A stretch of 64,000 nucleotides of DNA from Bacteroidia bacterium (lineage in GTDB: Bacteria > Bacteroidota > Bacteroidia > DATLTG01). This document shows positions 33,806-50,166 of this stretch, piece by piece; position 1 is the first letter of the stretch; each line of letters opens with the position of its first letter. The stretch lies in contig JBDTAC010000068.1 of assembly GCA_039924845.1 (NCBI GenBank), forward strand, positions 925 to 64,924. Reading direction: 5' to 3'. Below the pieces are notes generated by a model. The model was not told where the DNA came from and did no database searches. It saw only the letters and a list, made by a program, of their open reading frames with translations. Made by a program: the position numbers and the translations under genes.

Positions 33806-33902
33806 AATAATGGAGAATTGACAATGGTTAATTGATAATTAAAAGGGAGTCTCTTTCTGAAATGATTCAGCATTTGATGTTGGGTGTTTAGAACTAACAG
33901 CC

Positions 33903-34090
33903 GCATAAATGCTCGATGCGATTGCATAAATGCTCAATCGGATTGCTATATCGTTCAGTCAGATTGAGTAAATGCTCAATCAGATTGCATTATCGCTCAG
34001 TCAGATTGGTTAAATGTTCACCGAAATTGCATTATCGCTCAGTCAGATTGAGTAAATGTTCAGCGAGATTGCATAATGTCCAGCGGGGGA
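33903..34090 (+). repeat. tandem array, ~8.5 copies of a 21-bp unit (42-bp super-period)
   Basis: Units: CATAAATGCTCAATCGGATTG / CATTATCGCTCAGTCAGATTG / AGTAAATGCTCAATCAGATTG ... each ending GATTG. Confidence 0.9.
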
Positions 34091-34287
34091 CAAAAAAGCA
34101 AATCCAATTTATCTCTGCTGGAGAGGGCAGGGGGAGAAAAATAGTTTGCTTATCATTTTCGATTGAATTACATTTACCAAGCTAAATTCATGCTCGTGAA
34201 GAAAATAATTTTTCAAGCCTCATTAATTACCTTCCTTTTTCCGAGCCTTAATTTCCTTCAAGCGCAAACCAAAATAGGTTCTAAAAA

Positions 34288-35190
34288 ATGAAAAATACTT
34301 TATCCATTTCAGATAGTTTTGTTAAAACCTATACAGCAGGATTTAGGTTCGGCTTCAACGGAAAAGAAAAAGACAACGAGCTTTACGGTATTGGAAATGA
34401 CTACGATTACGGCATGAGGATGTATTATGCGAGATTAGGAAGATGGTTCAGCATAGACAACCTTTTTGCAAAGTATCCTTATCAAAGTCCATATTCTTTC
34501 GTTGGAAATTCTCCAATTTTAAAACAAGAATTTGATGGTATGGATTATGGAGTTTATACTAATCACGATACGAAAACCATTATTATAAAAGCAACTTACT
34601 ACACACAAAAAGGAGATAAAGATTCATATAACTCAGCGGTACAGGCAACCCAATATTGGAATAACCAAAGCGGAAAATTTCAATATGAGGTGGGAAGTGG
34701 CAATGATAAGGTTCGTTATAATATAAAATTTGAACTTACTGTGAAACAATCAGCTAATCCAGAATATGATGCAATAATAGAAGGAAAAGATTCTAAAGGT
34801 AATTATTTAGGTGAGAGTAATATTTATAGTGTTAAAAAAGATGATAATCCTGTTTTTGTTGATCCGAAAGTAAAAGATGAGGGAGGAGCAGGTGTAACTT
34901 ATCAAAATGGAACCCATATTGCTGTTCAAAAATCTTACGAATCAACTGATGGTGTAGGTGCCCATGAGGTCGGTCATACATTGGGAATAGATCACAAGGA
35001 GAATGGCTTAATGACCGTGAGTGTTAATGACCAAAATCATTCAAACTCGGTTGATAGATTTACGATTAAAGATATTTTTGCTAATGTAACTAAGCACGAT
35101 CCGACAAAAGGTGATGGTAATGCGACAGTACATGAAACAGGTAACAAACCCGCAAATTTTGATCAAGGCAAAGTAATTTTAAAACCATAA
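34288..35190 (+). CDS. orphan RHS C-terminal cassette: RHS core-end (DPxGL region) fused to a metzincin-like zinc-protease toxin domain
   Basis: N-terminus FRFGFNGKEKDNELYGIGNDYDYGMRMYYARLGRWFSIDNLFAKYPYQSPYSFVGNSPILKQEFDGM is an RHS repeat-associated core end. HEVGHTLGIDH matches HExxHxxGxxH. No upstream RHS repeats. Confidence 0.7.
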   Translation: MKNTLSISDSFVKTYTAGFRFGFNGKEKDNELYGIGNDYDYGMRMYYARLGRWFSIDNLFAKYPYQSPYSFVGNSPILKQEFDGMDYGVYTNHDTKTIIIKATYYTQKGDKDSYNSAVQATQYWNNQSGKFQYEVGSGNDKVRYNIKFELTVKQSANPEYDAIIEGKDSKGNYLGESNIYSVKKDDNPVFVDPKVKDEGGAGVTYQNGTHIAVQKSYESTDGVGAHEVGHTLGIDHKENGLMTVSVNDQNHSNSVDRFTIKDIFANVTKHDPTKGDGNATVHETGNKPANFDQGKVILKP

Positions 35191-35195
35191 ATGTT

Positions 35196-35621
35196 ATGAA
35201 AAATAAATTACTATTTGGAATATTTTTTTTAACATTATTGTTCTGTGGATTTGTCCAATCCAAAAAGATTGACAATGGCTATTATATTCCAGGTCGTTAT
35301 AAAATGACGAAAACAAAAAGTAAAGATAAAAATTCGGATAGCGTGTTGGTAAGTGGAAAAATTTTCACCGAAAAAGGAGAATCCGCGTTTCAGGAACCTA
35401 TAAAATTTGAAGGTAAAACATCTTGGGATAATGAGAATTTATTTTCAGATGGCTGGAATTATGCAGATAGTACAGGATTTTTTAGCGTAAAAATAAAAAA
35501 AGGAACTTTCAAAATTCGATGTACATCTACTTGGGGTAAAATAACAACAAAAAAAATAAAATTTAATCCAAAATTTGCATATTACTTCATTATTTATTTA
35601 GGAGATTCTAAGGTGTATTAA
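35196..35621 (+). CDS. putative cognate immunity protein (secreted, carboxypeptidase-regulatory-like beta-sandwich)
   Basis: 141 aa; signal peptide (LLFGIFFLTLLFCG); immediately follows toxin cassette 1. Confidence 0.45.
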   Translation: MKNKLLFGIFFLTLLFCGFVQSKKIDNGYYIPGRYKMTKTKSKDKNSDSVLVSGKIFTEKGESAFQEPIKFEGKTSWDNENLFSDGWNYADSTGFFSVKIKKGTFKIRCTSTWGKITTKKIKFNPKFAYYFIIYLGDSKVY

Positions 35622-35677
35622 GGTAGTGTTCAGAATGTCACCTGCGTTTTTCTGTTCAAAAAAATAATTTTTCAGTA

Positions 35678-37234
35678 ATGGAAAAACAAGTAAAAGCGTT
35701 TTTGGTAAAACACAATGTGTCATACGTTCATGTAAACGTGCCATACGTTCATGTAAACGTGTCATACGTTCAGATAAACGTGCCATACGTTCAGGTAAAC
35801 GTGTCATGCGTTCATGTAAACGTGCCATACGTTCATGTAAACGTGCCTAAGGTTCAGCTAAACATGCCTTATGTTCAGCTAAACATGTCGTACGTTACGG
35901 TTTATGGAAAGATAAAGGAAGTAGTCAGGACAGCAAGCAGTGCCTTACCTGATTTAGCGTTTAACTACGACCCAAGTGGAAACCGCATCAGCAAAGTAGT
36001 GAAACCACACGGCAGCAGCAAGGAAAACGGAGGTACAGACGAGCCTTTGCGTTGGACTTATACTTATTACGTTCGTGATGCACAAGGCAATGAATTGGTG
36101 GTGTATCAGCAGAAGTTAGATACCGTTGGCACCAACATTAGTTTAAGTTATAAGGAAACCGAACGCAACATTTACGGAAGTTCGCGCTTGGGTACAGAAG
36201 TGGGCGCAACCGAAATGATTGGTGCATTGCCACTCACAAATATTGATACCATTAACCATTATTTGGGAAACATACATTACGAAGCTGCTAATCATTTAGG
36301 TAATGTGTTGAGCGTTTTCACGGATAAAAAGATACCGATACAAAGCCTTACCAATCCTATGCTAATTGCCTCTTACGAGCCGGATATACTTAGCAGCACC
36401 GATTATTATCCTTTTGGCGCGCCCCTATATAGCAGGAATTTTAACAATACTGCGTTTAGGTTCGGCTTCAACGGAATGGAGAAAGATAATGACATATACG
36501 GCACCGGAAATGCTTATACAACAGAGTTTAGAATGCTTGACACACGCTTGGGTGGCAGGTGGTGGAGTTTAGACCCTGATATAAAACCTTGGGAAAGTCC
36601 TTATGCAGGATTTAGTGATAACCCTATTGTTTATAGCGATCCTTTTGGAAAGGATATCACGAATCCTGGAAAATACGTTTTAAGCAACAAAGCATTAATT
36701 CAAAAACTAAAGGCATTTGATATTGCTTTATCAGCAATTTCAGGACGTGATATACATTCATACAAAATTCCTATTACTGGAGGAGATAGATACAGAGATA
36801 AAGACGGAAAAATACGTTCTAGGTCAAATGGAGGTATTATTGGAAAATCAGCATCTCAATCTAGGCATCTTCAAGAAAATGGTGCATTAGCAGTAGATTT
36901 AGCGACAGGAGGTTGGGATTTAAAAACATTAGAAAAGGCGGCTAAAAAAGCGGGTTTAAGGATTAACCCTGATGGAGAGCCTTATACTGATGGGCATTTT
37001 CATCTTGACATGGGATTAGGAAAAAACGCAGATGAGGCAAAAAAAGTATATGATGCCTCAAATCCAGATAAAACACAAAGACCAACAGATAAGGATTTAC
37101 GCGTTAATGATAAAGAGGCAAAGTCAACAAGTTTAAATAATGATACTGGAGGCTATAAGCCCGATTCTGTCGCTCCTGCTACTCAAGATAAATTAAAATC
37201 TCCACCGCCTGCTAACGAACAAATAAAACAATAA
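35678..37234 (+). CDS. RHS-repeat protein 3' fragment: terminal YD repeats, core end, and M15/LAS-family zinc peptidase (peptidoglycan-hydrolase-like) toxin domain
   Basis: YD repeats (AFNYDPSGNRISKVV; RWTYTYYVRDAQGNELVVYQ). Core end FRFGFNGMEKDNDIYGTGNAYTTEFRMLDTRLGGRWWSLDP...DPFGKD. LAS peptidase motifs SRHLQENGALAVD (SxHxxGxAxD) and DGHFHLD (HxH). The first ~75 codons are the translated 21-bp repeat array, so the true start is probably later. Confidence 0.65.
   Translation: MEKQVKAFLVKHNVSYVHVNVPYVHVNVSYVQINVPYVQVNVSCVHVNVPYVHVNVPKVQLNMPYVQLNMSYVTVYGKIKEVVRTASSALPDLAFNYDPSGNRISKVVKPHGSSKENGGTDEPLRWTYTYYVRDAQGNELVVYQQKLDTVGTNISLSYKETERNIYGSSRLGTEVGATEMIGALPLTNIDTINHYLGNIHYEAANHLGNVLSVFTDKKIPIQSLTNPMLIASYEPDILSSTDYYPFGAPLYSRNFNNTAFRFGFNGMEKDNDIYGTGNAYTTEFRMLDTRLGGRWWSLDPDIKPWESPYAGFSDNPIVYSDPFGKDITNPGKYVLSNKALIQKLKAFDIALSAISGRDIHSYKIPITGGDRYRDKDGKIRSRSNGGIIGKSASQSRHLQENGALAVDLATGGWDLKTLEKAAKKAGLRINPDGEPYTDGHFHLDMGLGKNADEAKKVYDASNPDKTQRPTDKDLRVNDKEAKSTSLNNDTGGYKPDSVAPATQDKLKSPPPANEQIKQ
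35716..35905 (+). repeat. tandem array, ~9 copies of a 21-bp unit (42-bp super-period), related to the 33903-34090 array
   Basis: Units GTGTCATACGTTCATGTAAAC / GTGCCATACGTTCATGTAAAC alternate. The shared skeleton with array A is gYtcaNNNaaaNNtgcNNtaYc. Lies in-frame inside the 5' end of ORF 35678-37234. Confidence 0.9.
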
Positions 37235-37318
37235 ACATGAAAAAATTAAGGGATAAACTAAAAAAATAGGACATTAGAAAAAAATGATTAGTACAAAAAG
37301 TGATTATTATAAATTTCA

Positions 37319-37810
37319 ATGTTTACGTCTAAATTTTTAAATCAAATGAAAATGCGAATATGCGTAATTCTGTTTTCAATATATTTTATTGGGTGCAAAA
37401 CCAATAATTCGAAAACAAATAATCTTAATTGTCCAGAATTTTATCCCGAAATTGAGCATGTTTATTGGGCAGAACAAGGATTTACAATACCATCTGATAC
37501 CTTACACGATTATTGGTATAGATTGATTACTTTTTCAGAGGAAGAAGGATTTTGTACCATTATAGAAGAACTGCGACAGGGAAAAGTTGAAGGAGCTGGT
37601 AAAATGCAAGTTGTTAAGCAAATAAATATTACACATGTAAAAGGAATAGAGAATGAAAATGGCATATCGTTAGATTATGATGTGAAAAAATGGATAAGCC
37701 CCAAAGAAGTTGTATTAATATTAGAGGAACAACCTAAAACGACAAATAATTATTCTTGCAAAATTGTAAATTTAGATAACTTATCCGTAAAAGATACGAC
37801 TCTAAAATAA
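37319..37810 (+). CDS. putative lipoprotein immunity protein for the M15-peptidase toxin
   Basis: 163 aa; lipobox-like ILFSIYFIGC; periplasmic localisation would match a cell-wall-targeting toxin. Confidence 0.45.
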   Translation: MFTSKFLNQMKMRICVILFSIYFIGCKTNNSKTNNLNCPEFYPEIEHVYWAEQGFTIPSDTLHDYWYRLITFSEEEGFCTIIEELRQGKVEGAGKMQVVKQINITHVKGIENENGISLDYDVKKWISPKEVVLILEEQPKTTNNYSCKIVNLDNLSVKDTTLK

Positions 37811-37875
37811 TGTTAGTGAGTAGTGCGATAGGTAGTGTTCCAATTTGCACCTGTCCTTTTTAAAAAATCAAAAAC

Positions 37876-38146
37876 GTATTTCAAAAAATAATTTTTCAAA
37901 CCAAAAAAGCATTTCAAAAAATAATTTTTCGGAGAAGAAAAATAAAAACTTGATTGAAAAAACGTATTTGAAAAAATAATTTTTCAAATCAAAAAACGGT
38001 TTCAAAAAATAATTTTTCAAACGAAAAACACATTTCAAAAAATAATTTTTCGGAGCAGCAAAATAAAAAATTGGAATAAAAAACCAGTTTCATAAAATAA
38101 TTTTTCAAACTAAAAAAAAGTTTTCAAAAAAATAATTTTCTGAACG
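37876..38146 (+). repeat. tandem array of about eight copies of the palindromic TTTCAAAAAATAATTTTTC motif with 10-35-bp A-rich spacers
   Basis: For example GTATTTCAAAAAATAATTTTTCAAACCAAAAAAGCATTTCAAAAAATAATTTTTCGGAG... repeated. A partial duplicate lies at 46311-46395. Confidence 0.9.
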
Positions 38147-38292
38147 AGAAAAAAAATGGTTTGCAAAAAAAAGTTTTTAAAAACCATTTCAGCCGTATCA
38201 GGGATGGTGTAGCTACAAGAAGGAGCAGCAGCAATTGACAATGGAGAATTAGTAATTAATAATTGATAATTACTAATTGCAGATTATTTGCA

Positions 38293-38402
38293 AGTCGCTT
38301 TTTCCTGATAGAAATTTAAACACAAAAACAATTTGGCAAAGTGTTATTGCCAACTGGCTCAACGAGAAAAAATACCGCTCGAACAAGTTCAATTATTGGC
38401 AG
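38293..38402 (+). pseudogene. decayed copy of the 3' end of the tyrosine recombinase gene 42554-43411
   Basis: About 110 bp (CGCTTTTTCCTGATAGAAATTTAAACACAAAAACAATTTGGCAAAGTGTTATTGCCAACTGGCTCAACGAGAAAAAA...CAATTATTGGCAGG) is about 90% identical to 43212-43320 but frameshifted. Fused to the following ORF. Confidence 0.65.
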
Positions 38403-39525
38403 GACGCTTTCCAATAAACGAGAAGCGTTTACAAAAGAATATGCCAAGCGATTAGAGCAGGTACAAATAGAATGCAAGGATGCGCTAAAAGTAATTGAGC
38501 AATACGATGGCAAGGATACTTTTTTTTATCTCGACCCACCCTATTTTAATTCCGACTGCGGACATTACAAAGGCTATACAGAACAAGACTACGAAAAGCT
38601 ATTACAAGCACTTGAAAAGATACAAGGTAAATTTCTACTGAGTAGTTATCCGTCCGAACTGCTCAATACCTACGTAACAAAAAACAACTGGCGCAAACAA
38701 GAAAAAGAACAAACGATACTTCTCAGTCATCAAACAAAAAAAAAGAAAACAGAAGTGATGGTTTATAGCTACGATGCGCTGCAACAAAAAATTCATACTC
38801 GCAAGCAAAAACAAGGGCTTCGGATAAAATATAGTGCTATAAAATGCTTGCACAAACAAAAAAAAGTGTCGTGGTTCGCAAGCATGAAAAACATCTATGA
38901 TGCGCGAGGGCAAGCCTTTCAGCCGACACCCTCAGATAAAGCGGTATTTAAAAAGCTCCATGCCTCTATGAACAATGGGATACGAAGTGCCAAATCTACC
39001 ACAGCAAAAAAGTGGTTGCAAAACAAATCTTTGAGTATAGAAAAGAGCGGAGCGGTATTTAATTCAGGACAAATCCATCATCGGAAAACCAAAGAATTTA
39101 TTGAAGAACTAAAAAGCATCGGATTTTTAATAGCATCCACCGCAGCTACCAATACAGGAGAAACAGGCTATTGTTGTTTTGGAAAAAACGCGATTCTTTT
39201 TCCACTACGTAACAAAGAAAACGAAGTGCTAAACTTTTATGCTATCGGCATTACAAAAGACAAACAGGAATATTTAAACAGCTTAGGACTTTATCCGAAC
39301 TACCCACATCCACAATGCAAACGCTTGTACCTAACAGAAACTATTTTGGATGCAGCTACACTTTTAGAATCCAATGTGATGGATAACAAAGAAGCTGTTC
39401 TCGCTTTGCACAACGGAGAAATGAGTAAAGAACATATCGAAGCGATAGAAGGATTAAATGACTTGGAAGAAATTATTTTAATTGAGAAATGTGGCTCTGC
39501 CACTGATTTACAAATTAAGAATTAA
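38341..39525 (+). CDS. chimeric/hypothetical ORF: C-terminal half of a D12-class N6-adenine DNA methyltransferase (DPPY motif) lacking its AdoMet-binding N-terminus, followed by an uncharacterised (possibly toprim-like) domain
   Basis: KDALKVIEQYDGKDTFFYLDPPYFNSDCGHYKGYTEQDYEKLLQALEKIQGKFLLSSY matches Dam-family motif IV and downstream region. Motif I (FxGxG) is absent; the recombinase fragment lies directly upstream. Confidence 0.45.
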   Translation: MLLPTGSTRKNTARTSSIIGRTLSNKREAFTKEYAKRLEQVQIECKDALKVIEQYDGKDTFFYLDPPYFNSDCGHYKGYTEQDYEKLLQALEKIQGKFLLSSYPSELLNTYVTKNNWRKQEKEQTILLSHQTKKKKTEVMVYSYDALQQKIHTRKQKQGLRIKYSAIKCLHKQKKVSWFASMKNIYDARGQAFQPTPSDKAVFKKLHASMNNGIRSAKSTTAKKWLQNKSLSIEKSGAVFNSGQIHHRKTKEFIEELKSIGFLIASTAATNTGETGYCCFGKNAILFPLRNKENEVLNFYAIGITKDKQEYLNSLGLYPNYPHPQCKRLYLTETILDAATLLESNVMDNKEAVLALHNGEMSKEHIEAIEGLNDLEEIILIEKCGSATDLQIKN

Positions 39526-39569
39526 GAATGCAGGATTAAGAATTACGAATTACAAAATGAAAATATAAA

Positions 39570-41414
39570 ATGGAAAACGAACAAATAATAAAGCAGCCTA
39601 TGGCTGTGGAAAACGAACAAACAATAGAACAGCCTGCGGCTGTGGAGGAGCAGATACGAGAGATAGGTGTAAGAGCCAAAGTTCAAAGAGTAGCAATTCC
39701 TGAAAAGGAAAACTTGAATGAATTTTATCAAAAATATGCCAGCGATGGAATTGCTAAACTCATTGCCTTGCCGCCACAGTTAAGAGTAGTGAATGAATAT
39801 AAATTGGTTTTAAGCAGGACGGAAAACGATTACAATGTATTGGGCGCGTTAGGTCAAGACTTGGGCAGTATGCAAATAACCTTGATGGTAGAAGAAAAAA
39901 AACACGGCAGAAAAGAAAGAGTAAAAATAGATTTATACGAGCGGCAACACCTCCTGCAATTTGCAGCACAAATCGCAGAACTGTTTCATCAAAACACTGC
40001 AGGCATAGAAAACGATTTAATCCTGCTGACGGATTTACTCGAAACTTTTCGAGAAAAACAAACAGAACAGGCACAGCCTGTTTTTAATAATAAAAGAAAT
40101 TACGCAGCCCTATTACCCGAAACAAAAAAAAATTGCGTAGCATTTTTGTCAAACAAAAATTTGATGCAAAACATAGACAAGCTGATTGAACAATCAGGCG
40201 TGGTAGGAGAAGAAAATAGTCGCAGACTTTTATTTGTTGTTGCTTCTACTTACAAGATGAAAGAAACACTTCATGTATTGGTTCAAGGAAACAGCGGAAG
40301 CGGAAAAAGTCATTTGATAAATACGATAGGACAATGCCTGCCGCAAGAAGATGTACTCAGTATGACACGAGTAACAAGTAAATCCTTTTACCATTACAAC
40401 AAAGAAGAACTGATGGATAAAGTTATCCTACTTCAAGATTATGATTCATTAGAAGAAGAAGCTGGATATGCTTTCAGAGAATTACAAAGCGCAGGAACGA
40501 TTCATTGTTCCACCACACAAAAGGATCGCACAGGAGCGATAGTATCAACGATGAAAACAGTCAAGAGCCATTTTGCTTCTTTGATAGCTACCACCCAAGC
40601 AGAAATGCACTACGATACCATGAACCGTTCTGTTATGATAGGCATAGACGAAAGCCAAGAACAAACAAAAAAAATAATGGAGTATCAACACAAAAAATTA
40701 GCAGGACACATAGACAGCAAAGAAGAAGAAAAAGCGAAATTTTTTTTACAAAATTGTATCAGAGCATTACAGCCGATGGAAGTTGTGAATCCGTATTCAG
40801 ATAAAATACAAATTCCGCTACAAGCTAAAACTATGCGAAGGCTACATACTCAGTACCAAGTTTTCATAAAACAAATCACGCTGTTGCATCAATACCAACG
40901 CAAGAAAGACGAACAAGGTAGATTAATCACTGAGGAACAAGACATAGAAATCGCGAGCCGAATTTTCTTTGATGCTATAATGATGAAAATAGATGACTTG
41001 GATTCTTCTCTCAGACATTTTTTTGATGAACTGAAAAACTATGTTACAACTATCAATAAAGAGAAACAGGCACAGGCACAGCCTGTTCTTTTATCCGAAC
41101 CAACAAAAAGCGAAAACGCGAATCAAACCGATAAAATAAATAGTCAGCCGCACAGCGGCATAGTCTTTACGCAAAGAGAAATTAGGCTTGCATTAAACCT
41201 AAGTAAAACACAATGCTTTCGGCAAATGGAAGAACTGGAAAAATTGGAATACGTGCAGAGAATAGGCGGTTATGCCAACAGAGGTTTTCAATACAAAATA
41301 ACCTATTGGGACGATATGAAAACCGAGAAAGAAAGAATTAAAAGCGCATTCTGCGCTTTTGGTGGTTCTTGGCGTTCCAAAGAGCTTGGAACGCCACCTC
41401 TTATGCAGCACTGA
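39570..41414 (+). CDS. P-loop NTPase, putative replication/mobilisation protein of the integrative element (primase-associated helicase-like / VirE-like)
   Basis: Walker A VQGNSGSGKSHL; Walker B-like VILLQDYDSLEE; C-terminal winged-helix-like region; N-terminal direct peptide repeat ENEQ(I/T)IEQP. Confidence 0.55.
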   Translation: MENEQIIKQPMAVENEQTIEQPAAVEEQIREIGVRAKVQRVAIPEKENLNEFYQKYASDGIAKLIALPPQLRVVNEYKLVLSRTENDYNVLGALGQDLGSMQITLMVEEKKHGRKERVKIDLYERQHLLQFAAQIAELFHQNTAGIENDLILLTDLLETFREKQTEQAQPVFNNKRNYAALLPETKKNCVAFLSNKNLMQNIDKLIEQSGVVGEENSRRLLFVVASTYKMKETLHVLVQGNSGSGKSHLINTIGQCLPQEDVLSMTRVTSKSFYHYNKEELMDKVILLQDYDSLEEEAGYAFRELQSAGTIHCSTTQKDRTGAIVSTMKTVKSHFASLIATTQAEMHYDTMNRSVMIGIDESQEQTKKIMEYQHKKLAGHIDSKEEEKAKFFLQNCIRALQPMEVVNPYSDKIQIPLQAKTMRRLHTQYQVFIKQITLLHQYQRKKDEQGRLITEEQDIEIASRIFFDAIMMKIDDLDSSLRHFFDELKNYVTTINKEKQAQAQPVLLSEPTKSENANQTDKINSQPHSGIVFTQREIRLALNLSKTQCFRQMEELEKLEYVQRIGGYANRGFQYKITYWDDMKTEKERIKSAFCAFGGSWRSKELGTPPLMQH

Positions 41415-41577
41415 GAAAAGCTCTTGGCGTTCCATAATTCCAAGAGTACATAGTTTACAGCAAGAATTAAAAATTAATTGAAAATGGATAATGGAGAATT
41501 GAAAATGAAAAAACACGAAACAAAAACACCGAACAAAAATTCTGCATTCTTAATTCTGAATCCTTAATTTAATAAAA

Positions 41578-42501: not shown

Positions 42502-42553
42502 TTGAAAATGGAGAATTGATAATTGAAAATTACAAATTGAAAAAGCGAAACAA

Positions 42554-43411: not shown

Positions 43412-43420
43412 ATTTTACTT

Positions 43421-44347
43421 TTGTACTATGAATTAATTTTATTTCAAATGAAGGAGACACATTATTTAGCAGTTGAAACATCTAATATTACTGAGGATTG
43501 GGCTGATTTTTTAAATCAAAACAGGCTTACTAAATTAAATAAACACCCACAAACGATAGAGTTTGATATGCTTAATGTAAGATTTATTAAACCACATCAC
43601 GTTGTGTCATTAGCTTGTTTGATTGAAGAATATCATTTAAAAAAAATTGAAATTAGTTTCAAAAACACAAGTTCTAAAGGAGCGAAGTATTTGGAAAAAC
43701 TTAATTTTTTTCAATATTGGGAAGAAGGATTTAACAGAAAAGACTATAGACAAACACAAATAGGAACTGCATTTTGCCTTTGGAAATTACATCCTGAAAT
43801 GATAAGCCCTTATACTTCTATGTCGACAAATTATTATCGGAATCATTTTTTTAGCGGTAAAGATTTACAGCCGTTGGATACGGCTTTGGTAGAAATATTT
43901 AACAACATTATTGACCACGCACAATCAGAAGTGAGCGGATATGTTTTCACACAATATTATCCGAACAAAAACGAAATAGTATTGTCGATGTGTGATTTTG
44001 GTAAAGGAATTCCAAACACAATCAACACGTTTTTAAAACAAGAAGGGAAAGAACCTTTGACAGATGACGAAGCTTTGGAGAAAGCCTTCGAAAAAGGATT
44101 TTCCACAAAATCTACTCCACAGAACAGAGGTTTCGGGCTTAACAATGTTATCTCAGCTGTTAAAACGCTAAAAAGTGGTTTGACAATTACTTCAAATCAC
44201 GGATTTGTGGAACAAAATAGTACTTACTTTCGTAAAAGAGCCATCGCTAATAATTTTCCAGGTACTCAGATTGTAATTAAACTGAAAACAGAGAATCTAA
44301 GACCTCTTGAAACAGAAGAGATTTCCGAACAAGAATTTTATTTGTAA
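43421..44347 (+). CDS. GHKL-superfamily (histidine-kinase-like) ATPase with uncharacterised N-terminal domain
   Basis: N box NNIIDHA; G1 box DFGKGI; G2 box GFGLNN; no HisKA/DHp domain. Confidence 0.65.
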   Translation: MYYELILFQMKETHYLAVETSNITEDWADFLNQNRLTKLNKHPQTIEFDMLNVRFIKPHHVVSLACLIEEYHLKKIEISFKNTSSKGAKYLEKLNFFQYWEEGFNRKDYRQTQIGTAFCLWKLHPEMISPYTSMSTNYYRNHFFSGKDLQPLDTALVEIFNNIIDHAQSEVSGYVFTQYYPNKNEIVLSMCDFGKGIPNTINTFLKQEGKEPLTDDEALEKAFEKGFSTKSTPQNRGFGLNNVISAVKTLKSGLTITSNHGFVEQNSTYFRKRAIANNFPGTQIVIKLKTENLRPLETEEISEQEFYL

Positions 44348-44369
44348 CTTTGCAAAATATATATGCCCC

Positions 44370-44672
44370 ATGAACACTAAGACTGTAGTAATAAACCTGA
44401 TGGATACTGTTGCTGGTACAGCTACCACAACGGAGGGACTTGCTTTATACTTAGCGATGAGTAAAGCGATGGACACAGGCAAAAATGTAAAATTATCGCT
44501 AAAAGATTGCACTCCGTTATCGTCATCATTTCTTAATTCGACTTTCGGAGAATTGTATGACAGATACGGCTATGACAAGATTAAAGAACGTGTAGTCCTT
44601 ATAAATTATTTCCCATCTCACGCGATGGCAATTAAAAAATACCTGCAAGATTTGAATAATCTTGTTAGCTGA
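44370..44672 (+). CDS. STAS-like (DUF4325-type) small protein, partner of the upstream GHKL ATPase
   Basis: About 100 aa (MNTKTVVINLMDTVAGTATTTEGLALYLAMSKAMDTGKNVKLSLKDCTPLSSSFLNSTFGELY...). ATG 23 nt after the upstream stop; the track ORF uses an upstream TTG. Confidence 0.6.
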   Translation: MNTKTVVINLMDTVAGTATTTEGLALYLAMSKAMDTGKNVKLSLKDCTPLSSSFLNSTFGELYDRYGYDKIKERVVLINYFPSHAMAIKKYLQDLNNLVS

Positions 44673-44692
44673 TTTCTTGATTAAAATTGTTT

Positions 44693-44730
44693 AAAATCCA
44701 TTCTCAAAAGGAATGGATTTTTTATTTTTC
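44693..44730 (+). terminator. rho-independent terminator-like hairpin within the duplicated cassette leader
   Basis: AAAATCCATTC-TCAAAAG-GAATGGATTTT followed by TTATTTTTC; an identical element lies at 47430-47467. Confidence 0.7.
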
Positions 44731-44766
44731 ATGCAATTTATTTTGTATTTTTATCGAAAGAAAAAA

Positions 44767-45738
44767 ATGAAAAATACTTTTTCCATTTCAGTTAGTTTTT
44801 TTGAAACCTATACAGGAAGATTTAGTTTCGGCTTCAACGGAAAAGAAAAAGATAACGAGCTATACGGAACTGGAAACGCCTACGATTACGGCATGAGGAT
44901 GTACGATGCGAGATTGGGTAGGTTTATGAGTGTTGACCCTTTGACGGCAAAATATCCGATGCTAACACCTTTCCAATTTTCAAGTAATACGCCTATTGCA
45001 GGGATTGATAGAGATGGGCTAGAGTTTTATTATAAACCAAATGGACAATTTATAAAACGAATCGGTAAAAGTCAGCAAGTTTTTACAGCGGACGATGTAG
45101 AAGTTCAAAAGACTAAAACAGCTACAGTTTTCGTTCCAATAAATCCACGATCATTAAATATCAATCACTCTGAATTTATCAAATTTGCAGGTACTGCATA
45201 TGGAGAAAGTTCTGTCGGTGATAAAGTTTATAACAAAAAAGAAGTATGGGGAATAGCAAGTGCGATGTTGAATTATAAAAAAATTAGCGGGAAATCTGTT
45301 ATTGCTTACGCTTCAAGTAATCCAAACGCTCAGTTTAAAATATTTAGCAATACTTCAGACAAAGCAAGAAATGGAACATTTCAGCAAACTGCTATTGCTG
45401 GTGCAATTAATGCTTTGACAGATGGTGTAGATTACTCAAATGGTGGAACAAACTGGGCAGGAAATGACATTGCTAGCCCTAAAGAAAAATGGGCTGAAGG
45501 GTTACGTTTTTCCTCTCAAGCAGATAATTTATTTGGTTTAAAAAACAATGCTAAACCTGGCGTGGGATATTTTTTTAATAAAGCGGGAAAAGAAACTGGC
45601 ATACGAGGCACCTATGATTATAAATGGGAAACTACTGCTGCGTATGGAGGAATAGGAATAGGAGGTAAAACTTACGGAACTACATTTATGAAAGTTACAG
45701 ATGAATATAAAAAAGCAACAGGAGCGAAAGGGAATTAG
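44767..45738 (+). CDS. orphan RHS C-terminal cassette with uncharacterised toxin domain
   Basis: MKNTFSISVSFFETYTGRFSFGFNGKEKDNELYGTGNAYDYGMRMYDARLGRFMSVDPL...IAGIDRDGLE is the RHS core end with a DPxGL-type boundary. The following 240 aa are novel. The track ORF start at 44713 adds a leader-encoded artefact. Confidence 0.65.
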   Translation: MKNTFSISVSFFETYTGRFSFGFNGKEKDNELYGTGNAYDYGMRMYDARLGRFMSVDPLTAKYPMLTPFQFSSNTPIAGIDRDGLEFYYKPNGQFIKRIGKSQQVFTADDVEVQKTKTATVFVPINPRSLNINHSEFIKFAGTAYGESSVGDKVYNKKEVWGIASAMLNYKKISGKSVIAYASSNPNAQFKIFSNTSDKARNGTFQQTAIAGAINALTDGVDYSNGGTNWAGNDIASPKEKWAEGLRFSSQADNLFGLKNNAKPGVGYFFNKAGKETGIRGTYDYKWETTAAYGGIGIGGKTYGTTFMKVTDEYKKATGAKGN

Positions 45739-46264
45739 TACTTCATTTTGTTTTTTACTAATTGCCTTGCTTTTAAATTTGCCTTGTTTAGGACAAAAAA
45801 TTAGTATAAAAGATATTTCGAGCGAATTTCTTATGGGCTCCTCGATTGAGGATTCCTCATTGGATGTGTTTACTCGCCCCGACTCAATCCAATTTAGTTT
45901 ATCGTATAATCATATTTATAATACGAGTAAAGGGAAAACAGATTATTTTATCGTTAATCAGGATTCGTTATTTATCAACGTTGGACTTATTTACGACAAA
46001 GGATTAATGTTTGTTTATCAAGGAATATATAACAGCGACACAGTACGAAACAGTAACGTTAATTTTGTTTTATTCAAATCCCAATTAGAAGGATGCAATA
46101 GTGGTTTATGTGAGTTTAATTATTATTATTTAATAGAATTAGATGATGAACAAAAAGTTTCAAATTCGATTGAATACCTTTCAAAAGATGATAATATAAA
46201 AGACATTGTGGTAATTATGGATAATATCATCTTTACAAAAGGAATTTGTAACTGGGACAAGTAG
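45701..46264 (+). CDS. putative immunity protein (secreted)
   Basis: 187 aa with signal-like FCFLLIALLLNLPCLG; follows cassette 3. Start uncertain: it overlaps the toxin end by 38 nt. Confidence 0.4.
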   Translation: MNIKKQQERKGISTSFCFLLIALLLNLPCLGQKISIKDISSEFLMGSSIEDSSLDVFTRPDSIQFSLSYNHIYNTSKGKTDYFIVNQDSLFINVGLIYDKGLMFVYQGIYNSDTVRNSNVNFVLFKSQLEGCNSGLCEFNYYYLIELDDEQKVSNSIEYLSKDDNIKDIVVIMDNIIFTKGICNWDK

Positions 46265-46540
46265 GTAGTGTTGGTAGTGTTCCAATTTGCACCTGAGCTT
46301 TTTAATTCATAAAATAATTTTTCAAACGAAAAAAAAGTTTTCAAAAAATAATTTTCTGAACGAAAAAAAAGAGTTTGCAAAAAAAAGTTTTTGAAAACCA
46401 TTTCAGCCGTATCAGGGATAGCGTAGCCAAGAGGGGAAGCAGAGCAATGGACCATTCAGCCCCACCTAAATCCTCCCCAAAGGAGAGGACTTAAAAGAAA
46501 AAAAAATTGGAAATGATTTTGCCGATTGGAATTTCAAATT

Positions 46541-46719
46541 GCTAACCGAAAACAATTCCACAAAGTGTTATTGCTAATTGGCTGAACGAGAAAAAAATAT
46601 TCTTAGAACAGGTTCAATTATTAGCAGGTCATCGCTGGACTTCTTCTACCGAACGCTACAAACAAAATAATTTAAACGAACAAAGAACGCTTATCAATAA
46701 ATGGTTTCCGTTAAATTAA
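46541..46719 (+). pseudogene. second decayed copy of the tyrosine recombinase 3' end, retaining the stop codon
   Basis: About 180 bp is about 90% identical to 43235-43411 (…SVIANWLNEKKIFLEQVQLLAGHRWTSSTERYKQNNLNEQRTLINKWFPLN*) with no upstream gene body. Confidence 0.7.
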
Positions 46720-46786
46720 AAAAATGAAAAATTGTAAAATGGAATGAAATTTTCGATATTTTTGTAATAGTTAAAAGACAGTAAGT

Positions 46787-47233
46787 ATGCGTGTATATAT
46801 TGACACATCGGTTATAGGAGGATATTTTGATGAAGAATTTGAAGAATGGACAATCAAGTTATTTAAGGAGTTTGAAAAGCGAACGAAAATTCCTGTGGTT
46901 TCTGATTTAACTATTCAAGAACTCGAAAATGCACCAAAGCATATTATGACATTTTTTGAATCAATAAAAACGGAACGAATTTTGTTAGATACTGAGAGCA
47001 TACAATTAGCGAGGAATTATATTAAGGAGAAAGCAATAACAGCTAAATCCTTTAACGATGCATTACATATTGCAACAGCAACAGTTAATCGTTTGGATGT
47101 TCTTGTTAGCTGGAATTTTAAGCATATTGTAAACTTGGATAGAATTAGGCTGTATAACGCTGTAAATTTAAAAAATGGTTATCCATTAATGGAGATAAGA
47201 ACTCCAAGAGAAATTTTAACTAAAAATGAATAA
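46787..47233 (+). CDS. PIN-domain protein (VapC-like ribonuclease toxin)
   Basis: MRVYIDTSVIGG with acidic residues at the conserved PIN positions (D6; E/D in the ELE region; DALHIATA). Confidence 0.75.
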   Translation: MRVYIDTSVIGGYFDEEFEEWTIKLFKEFEKRTKIPVVSDLTIQELENAPKHIMTFFESIKTERILLDTESIQLARNYIKEKAITAKSFNDALHIATATVNRLDVLVSWNFKHIVNLDRIRLYNAVNLKNGYPLMEIRTPREILTKNE

Positions 47234-47398
47234 GAAAATGAAAACGGGAAAGAAAAAATTTGATGCTGTGCAAATGACACGGGACATCAGAAACAAAATG
47301 GGTGAAAAGTACTATCAAAGCATAGACCTTTTATTGAAGGATATGGAGAAGGTGCGAAAAAAATATAAAATTACGTCTAAGACACAAAAAGCTGCTTA
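47228..47398 (+). CDS. small basic ORF (56 aa) overlapping the PIN gene stop; possible partner/antitoxin
   Basis: ATGA overlap with the PIN stop codon; MNKKMKTGKKKFDAVQMTRDIRNKMGEKYYQSIDLLLKDMEKVRKKYKITSKTQKAA. Below the ORF-track length cut-off. Confidence 0.35.
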
Positions 47399-47429
47399 GT
47401 ACTATATTTATTCTTGATTAAAATTGTTT

Positions 47430-47467
47430 AAAATCCATTCTCAAAAGGAATGGATTTTTTATTTTTA
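47430..47467 (+). terminator. rho-independent terminator-like hairpin (duplicate of 44693-44730)
   Basis: AAAATCCATTC-TCAAAAG-GAATGGATTTTTTATTTTT. Confidence 0.7.
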
Positions 47468-47503
47468 ATACAACTTTTTTTGTATTTTTATCAAAAGAAA
47501 AAA

Positions 47504-48376
47504 ATGAAAAATAATTTTTCTATTTCAGTTAGTTTTGTTGAAACCTATACAGGAAGATTTAGGTTCGGATTAAGTGGAATGGAGAAAGACGATGAGATTT
47601 ATGGCACTGGAAACGCCTACACCACCGAGTTTAGAGAACTGGACACCCGTTTAGGTGGCAGGTGTTGGAGCTTAGACACGAAAACAAAAGCAGGGGAATC
47701 TCCTTATGTTGGTTTTGGTGATAATCCGATTGTTTACTGCGATCCTTTTGGTAAGGATACATTGCCTTCAAGTAGTAGCGGCTTACCTTTAAAAAATTTG
47801 AAACCAGTATCAATAGTGGCAGATAGACCAAAACCGCCTCCTACTGAAAGTGAAGTTCCTCAGTCTGCACAAAATGCTATTTTAGGAGATACGGTAAGTT
47901 TTGCTAAGAATAATGGAGAATCTTTGGATTTAATTGGTGATTTAGGTTCTGGTTTAAAAGAAACAGCCAAAATAGTAAAAAATAGCCATGTTGCAGCAGT
48001 AGTAGGATATGCAGGAGATGGATTGAATTTTATAGGCTACGGAGGCGACATTCTTAATTTTGAGGCTAATAGAGAAGATTACGTAAGTGGAGAAATAAGT
48101 GGCAAAAGATTTGCCTACAAAACAACAGGAACTGTTCTTTCGGTTGGAACGGACTTAGCAGTTTCTTATGGATTATTAGAGTCAATAGGGATTGGGGCAG
48201 GAATCGGTTCAACAGGATTTGACCCTGCTGGTGCTTTATTAGGAGGAGCTGTAGGAGGACTTTTCTGGTTAGGAGAAAAAGCGTACGATCATCTTCCAAA
48301 AAAATCTTCAAAAGAATATTCAAAAGAATCTCAAGAATTTGAAAAGATTATTACAAGTAATCATTTTATACTATAA
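47504..48376 (+). CDS. orphan RHS C-terminal cassette with glycine-zipper (putative membrane-disrupting) toxin domain
   Basis: MKNNFSISVSFVETYTGRFRFGLSGMEKDDEIYGTGNAYTTEFRELDTRLGGRCWSLD...DPFGKD, then a Gly-rich GxxxG segment (GIGAGIGSTGFDPAGALLGGAVGGLFWLG). Confidence 0.65.
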   Translation: MKNNFSISVSFVETYTGRFRFGLSGMEKDDEIYGTGNAYTTEFRELDTRLGGRCWSLDTKTKAGESPYVGFGDNPIVYCDPFGKDTLPSSSSGLPLKNLKPVSIVADRPKPPPTESEVPQSAQNAILGDTVSFAKNNGESLDLIGDLGSGLKETAKIVKNSHVAAVVGYAGDGLNFIGYGGDILNFEANREDYVSGEISGKRFAYKTTGTVLSVGTDLAVSYGLLESIGIGAGIGSTGFDPAGALLGGAVGGLFWLGEKAYDHLPKKSSKEYSKESQEFEKIITSNHFIL

Positions 48377-48385
48377 ACAGAGGCT

Positions 48386-48907
48386 GTGGACTCCTCGTTA
48401 AAACATAAAAACATTATGACCTTAAAAATTACCCTTAAAAACCAATTCGATGCCTTTAACTATCAAATTTTTGGGATTGTTATAATGGGTATTTATTTAT
48501 ATTTTTTTCCAGGTTTAGGATACTTAATAGCACTTACTTGTGGATGGTTATTTTCTGCTCTTCCTGCCATTTATTTACATATAGAATATTACTTAAGAAA
48601 CAAAGGAGAAGAAATTACCATAAATTTTGACGAACTAATTGTGAAAAAAAATGGTGTTGAAAAAAAATACAAAAACCAAGATTTTGAAAAAATAGTTGTG
48701 TACATGGCAGTATCGTACAATTTCGCCATTATAGGAATGCAGTATTATTTTTACACTCGCCTTATCACAACAAAAGGAGAAGAAATTATCATCACTTGTT
48801 TAATGACTCGAAAGATGGAAGAAGTATTAAAAACATTGGGTGCTCCTTATAAAATTAGTAGACTGCCCCTTTTTTACAGCTTGCGTTTTGGTCGGTTAAA
48901 AAAATAA
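48386..48907 (+). CDS. putative membrane immunity protein
   Basis: 173 aa with at least two TM helices (IFGIVIMGIYLYFFPGLGYLIALTCGWLFSALPAIYL); immediately downstream of cassette 4. Confidence 0.45.
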   Translation: MDSSLKHKNIMTLKITLKNQFDAFNYQIFGIVIMGIYLYFFPGLGYLIALTCGWLFSALPAIYLHIEYYLRNKGEEITINFDELIVKKNGVEKKYKNQDFEKIVVYMAVSYNFAIIGMQYYFYTRLITTKGEEIIITCLMTRKMEEVLKTLGAPYKISRLPLFYSLRFGRLKK

Positions 48908-50166
48908 TTTTTCAACCACCAATTATTGGAGAAAAAACAAGTTTCAAAAAATAATTTTTTCGAAAGCACTTTCTCAACAGATGCAATGACAGCATTTGCA
49001 ACGGTTTTGACTTGGTCATCTGTTAAATCATAAAAAACAGGCAAGGATATTTCACGCGAATAATTATCGAATGTAACAGGATAGTTTTTTACATCATATC
49101 CAAGCGATTTGTAAAAACTCATCATCGGAACGGGAATAAAATGCACGTTCACGGAAACATCTAAATCAAAAATAGATTGAATGATTTCGTCGCGTTGTGG
49201 TTCCGTAATTCCTTTTATCCGCAAAGGATATAAATGGAAGGAAGAAGTTTTCTCATTTGTATTTTGTTCTGGAATTTCTGCCCATTTGTGTTTGGAAAGG
49301 TATTGATTGTAAACAGAAATAATGTGTTTCCGTTTTACTAAGGTGTCGTTTTTATAACGCGCTAATTCTACTCTGCCAATGGATGCTGCGATGTCCGTCA
49401 TGTTGCATTTATAGCCGGGTTCTACAATATCGTAGCGCCAATTTCCTTTTTGTGATTTTGCCAGCGCATCTTTATTTTGTCCGTGCAAAGATTTTATGCA
49501 AAGCGATTGATACAAACTATCGTTATCAAAAGGAGCGGGAAAATTCAGTGCAATGGCGCCACCTTCGGCAGTAGTTAAATTTTTTACGGCATGAAAAGAA
49601 AAGACCGAAACATCTGTTAAACTGCCCGATGTACGGTTTTTATAAATCGCGCCAAACGAATGTGCTGCATCTGCGAGAATTAAAATACGACCTAATTTTT
49701 TTTGTTCTAAAGTATCTCCCGAAAATTTATTTTTCAAACGAATGACTAATTCATTTAATTCATCGTAATCACATGGAAATCCACCAAAATCCACTGGCAT
49801 AATTACTTTTGTTTTGGATGTAATTGCTTTTTCAATCGCAGAAATGGAAATATTAAAATCATTTTTATTCACATCCACAAAAACAGGAGTAGCGCCGCAG
49901 TGCATAATTACATTGGCAGTAGCGGCATACGTATAAGCTGGAAGAATAACTTCGTCGCCGGCTTTTACACCAAACCAACGCAACATTAATTCCATGCCTG
50001 CCGTAGCCGAATTTAAACACAGCGTGCTTTTGTTGCCGCAATAGTGTGTTATTTCTTTCTCGAAAAATTTTGTTTTCGGACCGGTGGTAATCCAGCCAGA
50101 TTGCAAGGCGAGCGTTACTTCGTCGATTATTTTTTGGTCGATGTGCGGAGGCGAAAATGGGATCAT
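48874..50166 (-). CDS. DegT/DnrJ/EryC1/StrS-family PLP-dependent sugar aminotransferase (ArnB-like)
   Basis: Start at MIPFSPPHIDQKIIDEV; PLP-lysine region (SFHAVKNLTTAEGGAI). The last ~25 codons are encoded by two copies of the palindromic motif (…KKLFFETCFFSNNWWLKNYFFNRPKRKL). Confidence 0.85.
   Translation of the reverse strand: MIPFSPPHIDQKIIDEVTLALQSGWITTGPKTKFFEKEITHYCGNKSTLCLNSATAGMELMLRWFGVKAGDEVILPAYTYAATANVIMHCGATPVFVDVNKNDFNISISAIEKAITSKTKVIMPVDFGGFPCDYDELNELVIRLKNKFSGDTLEQKKLGRILILADAAHSFGAIYKNRTSGSLTDVSVFSFHAVKNLTTAEGGAIALNFPAPFDNDSLYQSLCIKSLHGQNKDALAKSQKGNWRYDIVEPGYKCNMTDIAASIGRVELARYKNDTLVKRKHIISVYNQYLSKHKWAEIPEQNTNEKTSSFHLYPLRIKGITEPQRDEIIQSIFDLDVSVNVHFIPVPMMSFYKSLGYDVKNYPVTFDNYSREISLPVFYDLTDDQVKTVANAVIASVEKVLSKKLFFETCFFSNNWWLKNYFFNRPKRKL

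Follow-up and report, generated by a model that had tools for sequence, protein, structure and literature searches.

How do the interchangeable toxin tips of Rhs proteins find their way from one bacterial genome into another? Rhs and other polymorphic toxins diversify by swapping their C-terminal tips, and the travel of tips and immunity genes between genomes has so far been a matter of conjecture. The question is raised by a stretch of 64,000 nucleotides from a Bacteroidia bacterium (GenBank assembly GCA_039924845.1, contig JBDTAC010000068.1, positions 925 to 64,924; hereafter ‘the window’, comprising 64 of the 68.3 kb of its contig), in which four Rhs tip modules are crowded together with two Xer-like recombinase genes and no full-length rhs gene is found. 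A preliminary description of this DNA, made from the sequence alone, took the four modules for displaced rhs-CT/rhsI cassettes of the kind that recombine into a main rhs gene. Here, we argue that the region between 33.8 and 48.96 kb is best explained as a mobile-element island, composite in make-up and in partial decay, set between housekeeping genes and holding the four tip modules within it. With a confidence slightly better than even, we further propose that tips and immunity genes are the cargo of a recombinase-bearing element family found across the Bacteroidota, which would act as a circular carrier that swaps tips on resident rhs genes.

The island is flanked by a SpoU/TrmH gene, at whose stop codon (33805) it begins, and by a DegT gene, whose 3’ end (~48960) closes it; all of its genes, from 34288 to 48907, lie on the plus strand. 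Four open reading frames (ORFs), beginning at 34288, 35678, 44767 and 47504, have ~70 amino acids in common and are unrelated beyond them, just as had been reported; the common segment aligns as FRFGFNGKEKDNE…R.YD.RLGR…DP…D..G.. in all four. NCBI already lists these ORFs (MEO7088616.1 and others) as RHS repeat-associated core domain-containing proteins, and the affinity of the segment to that core is borne out by profile searches. Against a cutoff of 32.5 bits, the TIGR03696 model (Rhs_assc_core) scores the ORFs at 44767 and 34288 above threshold (46.1 and 33.3 bits, respectively) and that at 35678 below it (23.6 bits); the ORF at 47504 is unmatched, and its core end shares 75-78% DNA identity with that of 35678. 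With these core ends included, a profile also hits solved Rhs/Tc shells at their C-terminal plug (SGS1, TccC3, YenC2 residues 631-691). Within the segment lies the motif [FYWL][RKSG][FY][GKAS][FYML][NSQ]G[KMQ]E; the six frames of the 64 kb hold just four copies of it, all of them in the island. In the autoproteolysis region, where DPxGL is expected, the alignment reads DRDGLE in cassette 3, DPFGKD in cassettes 2 and 4, and EFDGMD, with Glu for the first Asp, in cassette 1.

What precedes the core end sets three of the cassettes apart from a conventional Rhs remnant. Cassette 1 (34288-35190; core end 34342-34545, followed by the toxin domain Tox1), cassette 3 (44767-45738; core end 44821-45024, then Tox3) and cassette 4 (47504-48376; core end 47563-47765, then Tox4) had been thought to start directly at the core end; instead, each opens with a conserved non-Rhs leader of 17-18 amino acids, MKNTxSISxSFxxTYTG (residues 1-18 in cassette 1), and the FRFGFNG codons are the precise point at which this leader gives way to the core end. 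Cassette 2 (35897-37234) is the sole member with a shell fragment, in keeping with the earlier assignment of YD repeats to the 35678 ORF only, but the first ~70 residues of that ORF are a translated tandem repeat and the shell begins at ~35897. This fragment of ~186 amino acids starts VYGKIKEV and leads into a core end at 36455-36655 and Tox2 at 36656-37234; it is homologous to RHS-repeat proteins, its best non-self match has 60% identity, and no RHS_repeat Pfam match was returned anywhere in the window. None of the four is thus a complete Rhs effector with a YD-repeat shell and an N-terminal delivery domain: one retains a ~186-amino-acid shell fragment and the others an 18-amino-acid leader.

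The boundary between leader and core end has also been a site of exchange. Cassette 4 is 94-95% identical to cassette 3 across the 5’ block and leader, then turns at the FRFGFNG codons to 75-78% identity with cassette 2, its resemblance to cassette 3 falling past the motif to 66% and then 48%. Because cassette 4 is such a mosaic, recombination at the core end has happened. The identity peak at the motif spans ~22 nt. A tract of that length is short for homologous recombination, and it weakly favours a site-specific reaction.

A candidate source of such a reaction lies between cassettes 2 and 3, where four genes on the plus strand form a module. The first is a chimeric ORF of 394 amino acids (38341-39525), in which the C-terminal half of a Dam-type methyltransferase is fused to the primase-like gene of the module and whose relatives match only residues ~200-383. 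It is followed by the gene of a P-loop NTPase (39570-41414), the homologues of which carry PF27228, a domain that takes its name from a plasmid gene, and by two recombinase genes that we label recA and recB and to which these lower-case names refer throughout. The product of recA (41578-42501), a Xer-like tyrosine recombinase, has every residue of the R-K-HxxR-H-Y catalytic set; that of recB (42554-43411) is a Xer-like partner without Arg-I and His-II. Both residues, at GL[ST]xxE and TIRQS respectively, are missing from all 37 members of the recB family recovered from related loci (L001-L037), whereas the neighbouring recA keeps its full set, which suggests that the two may work as an obligate pair in which one subunit is active and the other degenerate. 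The best explanation of these genes is that they define an element family: a primase-like gene, a plasmid-type P-loop gene, a putatively active recA and a degenerate recB. Other identities were considered and set aside. Both recombinases are Xer-like but fall below XerC/D cutoffs, and an integron identity was rejected on integrase-model scores far below cutoff (TIGR02249, 96.9 bits for recA and 27.5 for recB against 265; NF011946, 60.1 for recA against 435). The P-loop gene has no relatives in viral contigs, and a phage or satellite origin was dropped given that the module does not occur in the viral collection, a result that says nothing for or against an episomal form.

If the module and the tips belong together, they should be found together elsewhere, and loci chosen on recombinase similarity bear this out. 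With recB alone as query, one genome per GTDB species and up to 10 kb on each side, we retrieved 37 loci from Flavobacterium species, Marinilabiliales and many metagenome-assembled genomes of Bacteroidota; three further loci were picked by similarity to recA alone, a gene with more than 5,800 relatives. The four-gene module is kept at 40-59% identity in the 37 recB-fetched loci, and among themselves the Flavobacterium loci share ~4.2 kb of DNA homology that runs from the start of the primase-like gene to the recB stop and ends sharply there. An Rhs core-end ORF is present in 34 of the 37 and in two of the three recA-fetched loci. In 23 of the 37 it lies on the same strand, 29 nt to 5.6 kb downstream of recB. 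Cultured carriers of the element among the Flavobacterium loci are F. aerium 19SA41 (L010), F. circumlabens P5626 (L012), F. olei JCM 31673 (L017) and F. chilense LMG 26360 (L021). The co-location of tips with recombinases noted for this island can be restated in broader terms: the module adjoins core-end ORFs in 36 of 40 loci fetched by recombinase similarity. The Flavobacterium elements (L016, 5732-6307; also L008 and L023) additionally carry a third, distinct integrase-family ORF of 191-201 amino acids and a conserved 211-amino-acid ORF between the immunity and primase-like genes.

The junction seen in the window recurs in these relatives with other sequences upstream of it. BLAST-anchored extraction of leaders across loci shows that, whatever the lineage, its short cassettes have in common a non-Rhs sequence peculiar to it, and that this gives way to the core end at one constant point, where the first codon of Y/F-R/K-F/Y-G-F-N-G-K-E stands. 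The sequence reads MKNTFSISVSFVETYTG in the window, YVETY in L005, FSEYATG in L006, SLFCRRTEQ in a third group and KRFAEPYKYKYNGKE in Flavobacterium. Leader type co-varies with recB across genomes and always abuts the motif. Three cassette copies in L005 have unrelated upstream flanks, one of which is the recB stop plus 26 nt, and their identity sets in precisely at the motif. The Flavobacterium block, which is conserved as DNA across species, has a stop codon six codons upstream of the motif and no start codon, and is in this genus a non-coding junction sequence, not a translated leader.

A second physical link between recombinase and cargo is provided by recB itself, the 3’ end of which is scattered through the island. 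Beside the ~200 bp that close the gene (43212-43412), one copy lies at 38296-38403 (94.5% identical to 43212-43320), extending into the chimeric ORF, and another at 46520-46720 (90.7% identical to 43241-43412 and reaching the stop codon), so that the three delimit units of 4916 nt and 3308 nt. The 394-amino-acid ORF accordingly reads, in order, as recB 3’ remnant DNA, the methyltransferase half and the primase-like gene, and marks a deletion junction. The two remnants are truncated at the same 5’ position and have homologous flanks upstream (38089-38403 and 46306-46628), and the core GTGTTATTGCYAAYTGGCTNAAYGA is found exactly three times in the window, where none would be expected by chance. 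The two units after recB are laid out alike, each with a recB 3’ end, a small gene pair, a hairpin and leader, a tip, an immunity gene and AT repeats. Between recB and cassette 3, the gene pair (43421-44672) encodes a GHKL/HATPase protein and a DUF4325 STAS-like protein; the former has a weak DrmA-like PADLOC match (3e-11), and the pair may be a defence or toxin-antitoxin-like module. Ahead of cassette 4 it consists of a PIN-domain protein and a 57-amino-acid ORF (46787-47399), a toxin-antitoxin-like arrangement. The 5’ block that follows in each unit is 89% identical between the two (44674-44883 and 47411-47620), with cassette 1 sharing it from the start codon on; its upstream portions (44674-44766 and 47411-47503) hold the same perfect 12-bp hairpin and T-run, at 44693-44721 and 47430-47458. 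Comparable units occur elsewhere. In L034, a recB 3’ fragment is followed by a 295-amino-acid ORF, a split HipA pair, a leader and tip, and a small downstream ORF. In L037 (200-5300), three recB 3’ copies bound an array of Fic, split-HipA and ParE cassettes, each lying after a copy in which the DNA core is kept and the reading frame broken; no intact recombinase was seen in the stretch examined.

These observations bear directly on the reading of the preliminary description, that of a classical orphan array, in which tips were displaced by RecA-mediated recombination from a main rhs gene, since lost or lying on another contig, and an unrelated integrative element landed among them. Displacement of this kind is established in Enterobacteriaceae (PMC2935791), as are orphan tip arrays more generally (Jackson 2009, PMC2935791; Poole 2011, PMC3150448; Koskiniemi 2014, PMC3967940), and much of the island conforms to it: detached modules of core end, toxin and immunity gene in tandem on one strand, tips exchangeable between loci, a mosaic at the core end and a postulated circular intermediate. 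Cassette 2, too, keeps its shell upstream of the core end like a classical orphan, and Bacteroidota abound in short Rhs fragments with DYYPFG remnants, L039 carrying such fragments after a tip. The description was thus right about the modules, about the want of a complete rhs gene in the window and about recombination at the core end. It fares less well upstream of that point, where cassettes 1, 3 and 4 have a non-Rhs leader in place of a core remnant. No main rhs gene is found in the 64 kb, so that within this stretch the modules do not lie downstream of a full-length gene sharing their core, and no rhs, type VI secretion system (T6SS) or type IX secretion system genes occur among the other large ORFs of the window, which are housekeeping genes. 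Three further observations speak against it: leader type co-varies with recB across genomes, the module adjoins core-end ORFs in 36 of 40 loci chosen independently of Rhs, and the units are bounded by copies of the recB 3’ end. We consider a classical orphan array rather improbable here.

The carrier model is shaped by what is found in those relatives where a complete rhs gene survives next to the module. In L016, a complete Rhs gene (DUF6443, RHS repeats, core and Ntox44; 1203 amino acids) lies with its tip and a small downstream ORF immediately ahead of the module, while behind recB comes a cassette that has no start codon. The same order is found in L019 (1175 amino acids), in L035 (a stop-to-stop ORF of 1281 amino acids, cut by the start of the locus) and in L042 (at least 2,816 amino acids); in L008, L009 and L023 the edge of the locus truncates the Rhs ORF ahead of the module. 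The arrangement of Rhs, tip, module and second tip thus occurs in seven of the 40 loci. One and the same tip and immunity module sits on an Rhs shell in L008 (1284-2765) and behind recB in L019 (11230-12706), with 81% identity and with homology that begins at the motif in both.

What is shown comprises the anatomy of the island, its homologies, the mosaic in cassette 4, the conserved association of module and tips, and units bounded by repeats; circularisation, the enzyme behind the crossover and expression are inferred. The module would be a circularising and possibly self-replicating element with a cassette of its own, in which a leader abuts core end, tip and immunity gene. Tip modules join any upstream sequence, be it Rhs shell or element leader, exactly at the FRFGFNGKE codons, and a single crossover with a resident rhs gene at the edge of the core end would fuse the tip of the element to the shell, leaving the resident tip behind recB and the leader. 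The relatives just described would then represent an element lodged inside a complete rhs gene, one tip on the shell and another behind recB. With time, shortened derivatives and further cassettes would build up at a site in the recB 3’ end. The window itself holds one near-complete copy of the element at 38.3-43.4 kb and two shorter units after it, in each of which a recB 3’ fragment opens a series that continues with a toxin-antitoxin or defence-like pair and a leader and closes with tip and immunity gene.

Several points weigh against the carrier model. No circular form, excision junction or empty site has been seen; the flanking TrmH gene, used as a query for the empty site, found no relatives in metagenome contigs. 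A long Rhs ORF upstream of the module is confined to the seven loci given above. The crossover could be RecA-dependent, for a sharp boundary at the motif is what one expects at any point where homology starts. Synonymous codons speak for exchange at the motif, being the same between the two core-end subtypes at the seven motif codons (7/7 and 6/6), against 4/10 and 4/12 in the next 20 codons, but the numbers are small and the difference is suggestive only. One of the two recombinases lacks two catalytic residues, and decay is visible in the copy in the window, whose first gene is chimeric and where recB copies are truncated. Finally, since one recA-fetched locus has CBASS-like cargo and no tip, tips would be frequent rather than obligatory cargo of an element family that carries different conflict systems. 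That locus (L041, 11891-17100) has the same four-gene module, then a CBASS-like operon (SMODS, ThiF, Prok-JAB and NARF), with an RteC gene upstream.

A more ambitious version of the model would make the family a dedicated Rhs-tip shuttle, a small plasmid-like episome whose recA and recB perform site-specific exchange at the FGFNGKE edge and capture cassettes in the recB 3’ end, new pairs of tip and immunity gene being set on resident rhs genes and old ones archived in integron-like arrays along with toxin-antitoxin and defence cassettes. This we offer tentatively, as a proposition more likely to be wrong than right. The likeness to integrons and chromosomal super-integrons lies in a tyrosine recombinase beside a one-directional array of small cassettes, some of them toxin-antitoxin pairs, split by repeats. 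Unlike in integrons, the repeat here is the recombinase’s own 3’ end and not an attC hairpin, and the array lies downstream of the recombinase gene.

If the island is cargo, what does the cargo do? Each of the four cassettes is followed, as had been observed, by a small ORF bound for the envelope, with a hydrophobic segment, a lipobox or membrane helices. The candidate immunity gene of cassette 1 (Imm1, 35196-35621) has an N-terminal hydrophobic signal-like segment at residues 2-23; Imm2 (37349-37810) is a lipoprotein-type ORF with the lipobox FIGC, its likely start being M11 of the 37319 ORF; Imm3 (45701-46264) is a signal-peptide protein with a hydrophobic segment at 11-36; and the candidate Imm4 (48386-48907) is an integral-membrane protein with membrane-spanning segments at ~27-66. 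None of the four matches Pfam, NCBIfam or PADLOC. Imm2 is nevertheless 54% identical (E 1e-57) to the ORF directly after a Tox2 homologue in L040, which starts with a clean lipoprotein signal, and Imm3 matches L039_158 (E 5e-5), which in turn matches L038_159 (E 3e-29), both directly after Tox3 homologues. Tox2/Imm2 and Tox3/Imm3 thus show the cognate downstream immunity gene by which polymorphic toxins are recognised (Zhang 2012).

The toxin domains themselves are classified with uneven certainty. Profile searches of the C-terminal domains and immunity ORFs, which the preliminary description had proposed, gave sub-threshold metzincin matches for Tox1 and left Tox4 as well as the immunity ORFs unmatched. 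The metzincin-type HExxHxxGxxH reported in the first ORF is present as HEVGHTLGIDH; Pfam scores are 20.9 bits for Metallopep (cutoff 27) and 18.8 for Peptidase_M10 (cutoff 24), and the PDB match, to MMP-13 at E 0.65, covers only the zinc motif. Relatives of Tox1 were found only on core ends; those in the fetched loci keep HExxH, and the full metzincin motif stands in two of five aligned sequences (the window and L013). Tox1 may, by motif, be a zincin or metzincin. Of the M15/LAS motifs ascribed to the second ORF, HFH is there and SxHxxGxAxD is not found literally, its place being taken by SRHLQENGALAVD (H-x9-D). Tox2 has 118 relatives in a library of 1.84 billion proteins; 60 of them, once aligned, keep H71 and D81 without exception and S69, H114 and H116 almost without exception. 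Three of the 60 match Peptidase_M15_2 or M15_3 at ~1e-4, and others carry RHS repeats, YD shells, DUF637 or another core-end type. Tox2 itself has no Pfam match and reaches E 0.16 against the MepK model; a PDB sequence search gave a single, spurious match, and its AlphaFold (AF2) model, with a pLDDT of 53, was of too low a quality to be informative. That Tox2 is a LAS/M15 peptidase is plausible but not established.

Tox3 is the best resolved of the four. It combines a SleB-like lytic-transglycosylase fold with a beta domain, the match to the SleB catalytic domain retaining the conserved catalytic Glu, and the domain has two types of core end as scaffolds and also occurs as a fusion to Hcp/TssD and immediately behind VgrG. 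Tox4, in which the glycine-rich stretch described earlier is present, has no relatives in Pfam, NCBIfam or PDB. The statement that two toxin domains and all immunity proteins lack an obvious family was too strong, Tox3 being SleB-like and Imm2 and Imm3 having homologues in equivalent positions. The occurrence of Tox2 and Tox3 on other delivery scaffolds makes them polymorphic in the sense of Zhang 2012, in which the same toxin appears on different scaffolds. With Bacteroidota T6SS effectors (VgrG-linked and Hcp-fused toxins, DUF6443-Rhs proteins) the island shares the Tox3 domain, seen with Hcp/TssD and VgrG, and the complete Rhs beside the module in L016 has DUF6443, RHS repeats and Ntox44; unlike in those effectors, there are no T6SS genes in the window and no N-terminal delivery domains on the cassettes. 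In Flavobacterium (L038, CP100437.1, 2187-5411), a VgrG gene is followed by that of a 313-amino-acid Tox3-domain protein and then by an Imm3-family gene, an arrangement that resembles a T6SS effector-immunity pair, with a SleB-like fold, that has so far escaped annotation.

Export of the immunity proteins would fit the peptidoglycan-directed folds of Tox2 and Tox3, and the best explanation of each cassette is a core end, a predicted cell-envelope toxin and a predicted cognate immunity protein, exported or set in the membrane. As encoded here, the toxins would be undeliverable, because all four lack a complete Rhs shell. Protection of the cell by the immunity genes would still be possible, and the likely present-day value of the island is immunity together with a reservoir of tips.

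Might the toxins instead never leave the cell that makes them? Cassettes 1, 3 and 4 could be stand-alone genes of ~300 amino acids, translated from their own start codons and acting in the producer with their immunity partners in the manner of a toxin-antitoxin system, for which an orphan Rhs of Salmonella is reported as a precedent (PMC7043789). Each has an ATG and the conserved 18-amino-acid leader, and ~46 nt upstream of cassettes 3 and 4 stands the strong hairpin with its T-run, which would insulate them from upstream transcription. This is hard to reconcile with the Flavobacterium relatives, whose stop ~6 codons before the motif and missing start indicate that translation of the leader is not conserved, and with Tox2 and Tox3, which are peptidoglycan-directed by fold or motif and have no signal peptides while their partners are exported, a misfit for a cytoplasmic pair. 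We regard such an arrangement as very improbable.

A defensive island of the rAID kind is a stronger contender. In rAID-1 of Bacteroidales, a XerD-like recombinase is accompanied by arrays of immunity genes (Ross 2019, 10.1101/471110), and polyimmunity loci linked to XerC/D have also been described (Zhang et al. 2012, PMC3482391). By analogy, immunity genes in the island would be selected against the toxins of neighbours, the Xer-like recombinases would capture cassettes and the toxin ORFs would be passengers. The island shares with rAID-1 its phylum, a XerD-like tyrosine recombinase followed by at least two co-oriented short genes with repetitive intergenic motifs, and immunity genes directed at contact-dependent toxins; none of the four immunity ORFs is disrupted and each has an export or membrane signal, the toxins have no delivery domain, and toxin-antitoxin and defence cargo travel in the same units. 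It departs from rAID-1, with its single recombinase and arrays of orphan immunity genes, in having two recombinases along with primase-like and P-loop genes, in the toxin-antitoxin or defence pairs of its cassettes, and in the complete toxin domain with an Rhs core end before each immunity ORF. Against this reading, the toxin ORFs are full length with putative catalytic residues intact. The polyimmunity loci likewise place Xer-type recombinases beside arrays related to polymorphic toxins, but these are described as never interrupted by toxin genes or cassettes (PMC3482391), whereas toxin and immunity genes alternate here; and in relatives the same module stands directly behind complete rhs genes. 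As a full account of the island this is unlikely, though it deserves more credence than a classical orphan array, and as a second function it is compatible with the carrier model.

The remaining features concern the borders and repeats of the island. On the left, directly after the gene with TrmH/SpoU domains, the border region (33802-34194) holds an AT-rich motif of the module type (33802-33840) and a 21-nt tandem array of 8.3 copies (33903-34076) upstream of cassette 1. A second 21-nt array, of 8.6 copies (35717-35896), lies at the 5’ truncation point of the shell fragment of cassette 2 and has been annotated and translated as the spurious N-terminus of a 518-amino-acid ORF. Both arrays are iteron-like, yet such arrays are not a common feature of related loci, and an identity as iterons was not adopted. 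On the right (48894-48959), AT-rich repeat copies overlap the extended 3’ end of the minus-strand DegT gene; the C-terminal extension of this aminotransferase ORF, ~35 amino acids long (48874-48985), runs through the repeat, and the 3’ end of the gene appears to have been altered by the insertion. A tRNA integration site was excluded, there being no tRNA genes in the window.

Between the cassettes, a 3’ element, GGTAGTGTTCC..CACCTG, stands directly after Imm1, Imm2 and Imm3, and AT-rich TTTCAAAAAATAATTTTTCAAAC repeats follow each cassette and recur at the right border. After Imm1 (35621-35674) the element takes the form GGTAGTGTTC..CACCTG with the AT-rich motif. After Imm2 (37830-38295) it occupies 37830-37860 and is succeeded by AT-rich 33/55-nt repeats (37865-38194) and a conserved spacer, a region homologous to that after Imm3 (46272-46519), which consists likewise of 3’ element, AT-rich repeats and conserved spacer. 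Heptamer repeats of the AATTGAA/AATTAAG type fill every intergenic gap of the module (38233-38285, 39513-39552, 41475-41570 and 42495-42543) and reappear at the left edge of the island, directly after the TrmH stop codon (33802-33840). A scan for sigma-70 promoters did no better than shuffled sequence (60 found against 55 expected), and no promoter is claimed.

What, then, would such an element mean for the Bacteroidota? The cassettes are new members of the Rhs polymorphic-toxin kind and their recombinase-linked architecture is a new variation on it: among open-access papers and preprints, we found no description of the module, of leader-type tips or of a link between Rhs tips and Xer-type recombinases. 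Two toxin-immunity families are defined, and a peptidoglycan-cleaving fold is given to a previously unclassified toxin domain linked to the T6SS. When displacement of tips was first put forward, a circular intermediate was proposed and no integrase was known to accompany Rhs (Jackson 2009, PMC2935791); if the tentative shuttle is real, it would supply the integrase-driven circular intermediate that has been wanting since 2009. It could also explain how arrays of the rAID type are built, a process described as unresolved in gut Bacteroidales (10.1101/2025.05.03.651265). A conserved module of replication and recombinase genes, with a fixed junction and repeat-bounded cassettes, is a concrete candidate for the vehicle in which tips and immunity genes travel between genomes, and it is carried by Flavobacterium strains that are already in culture.

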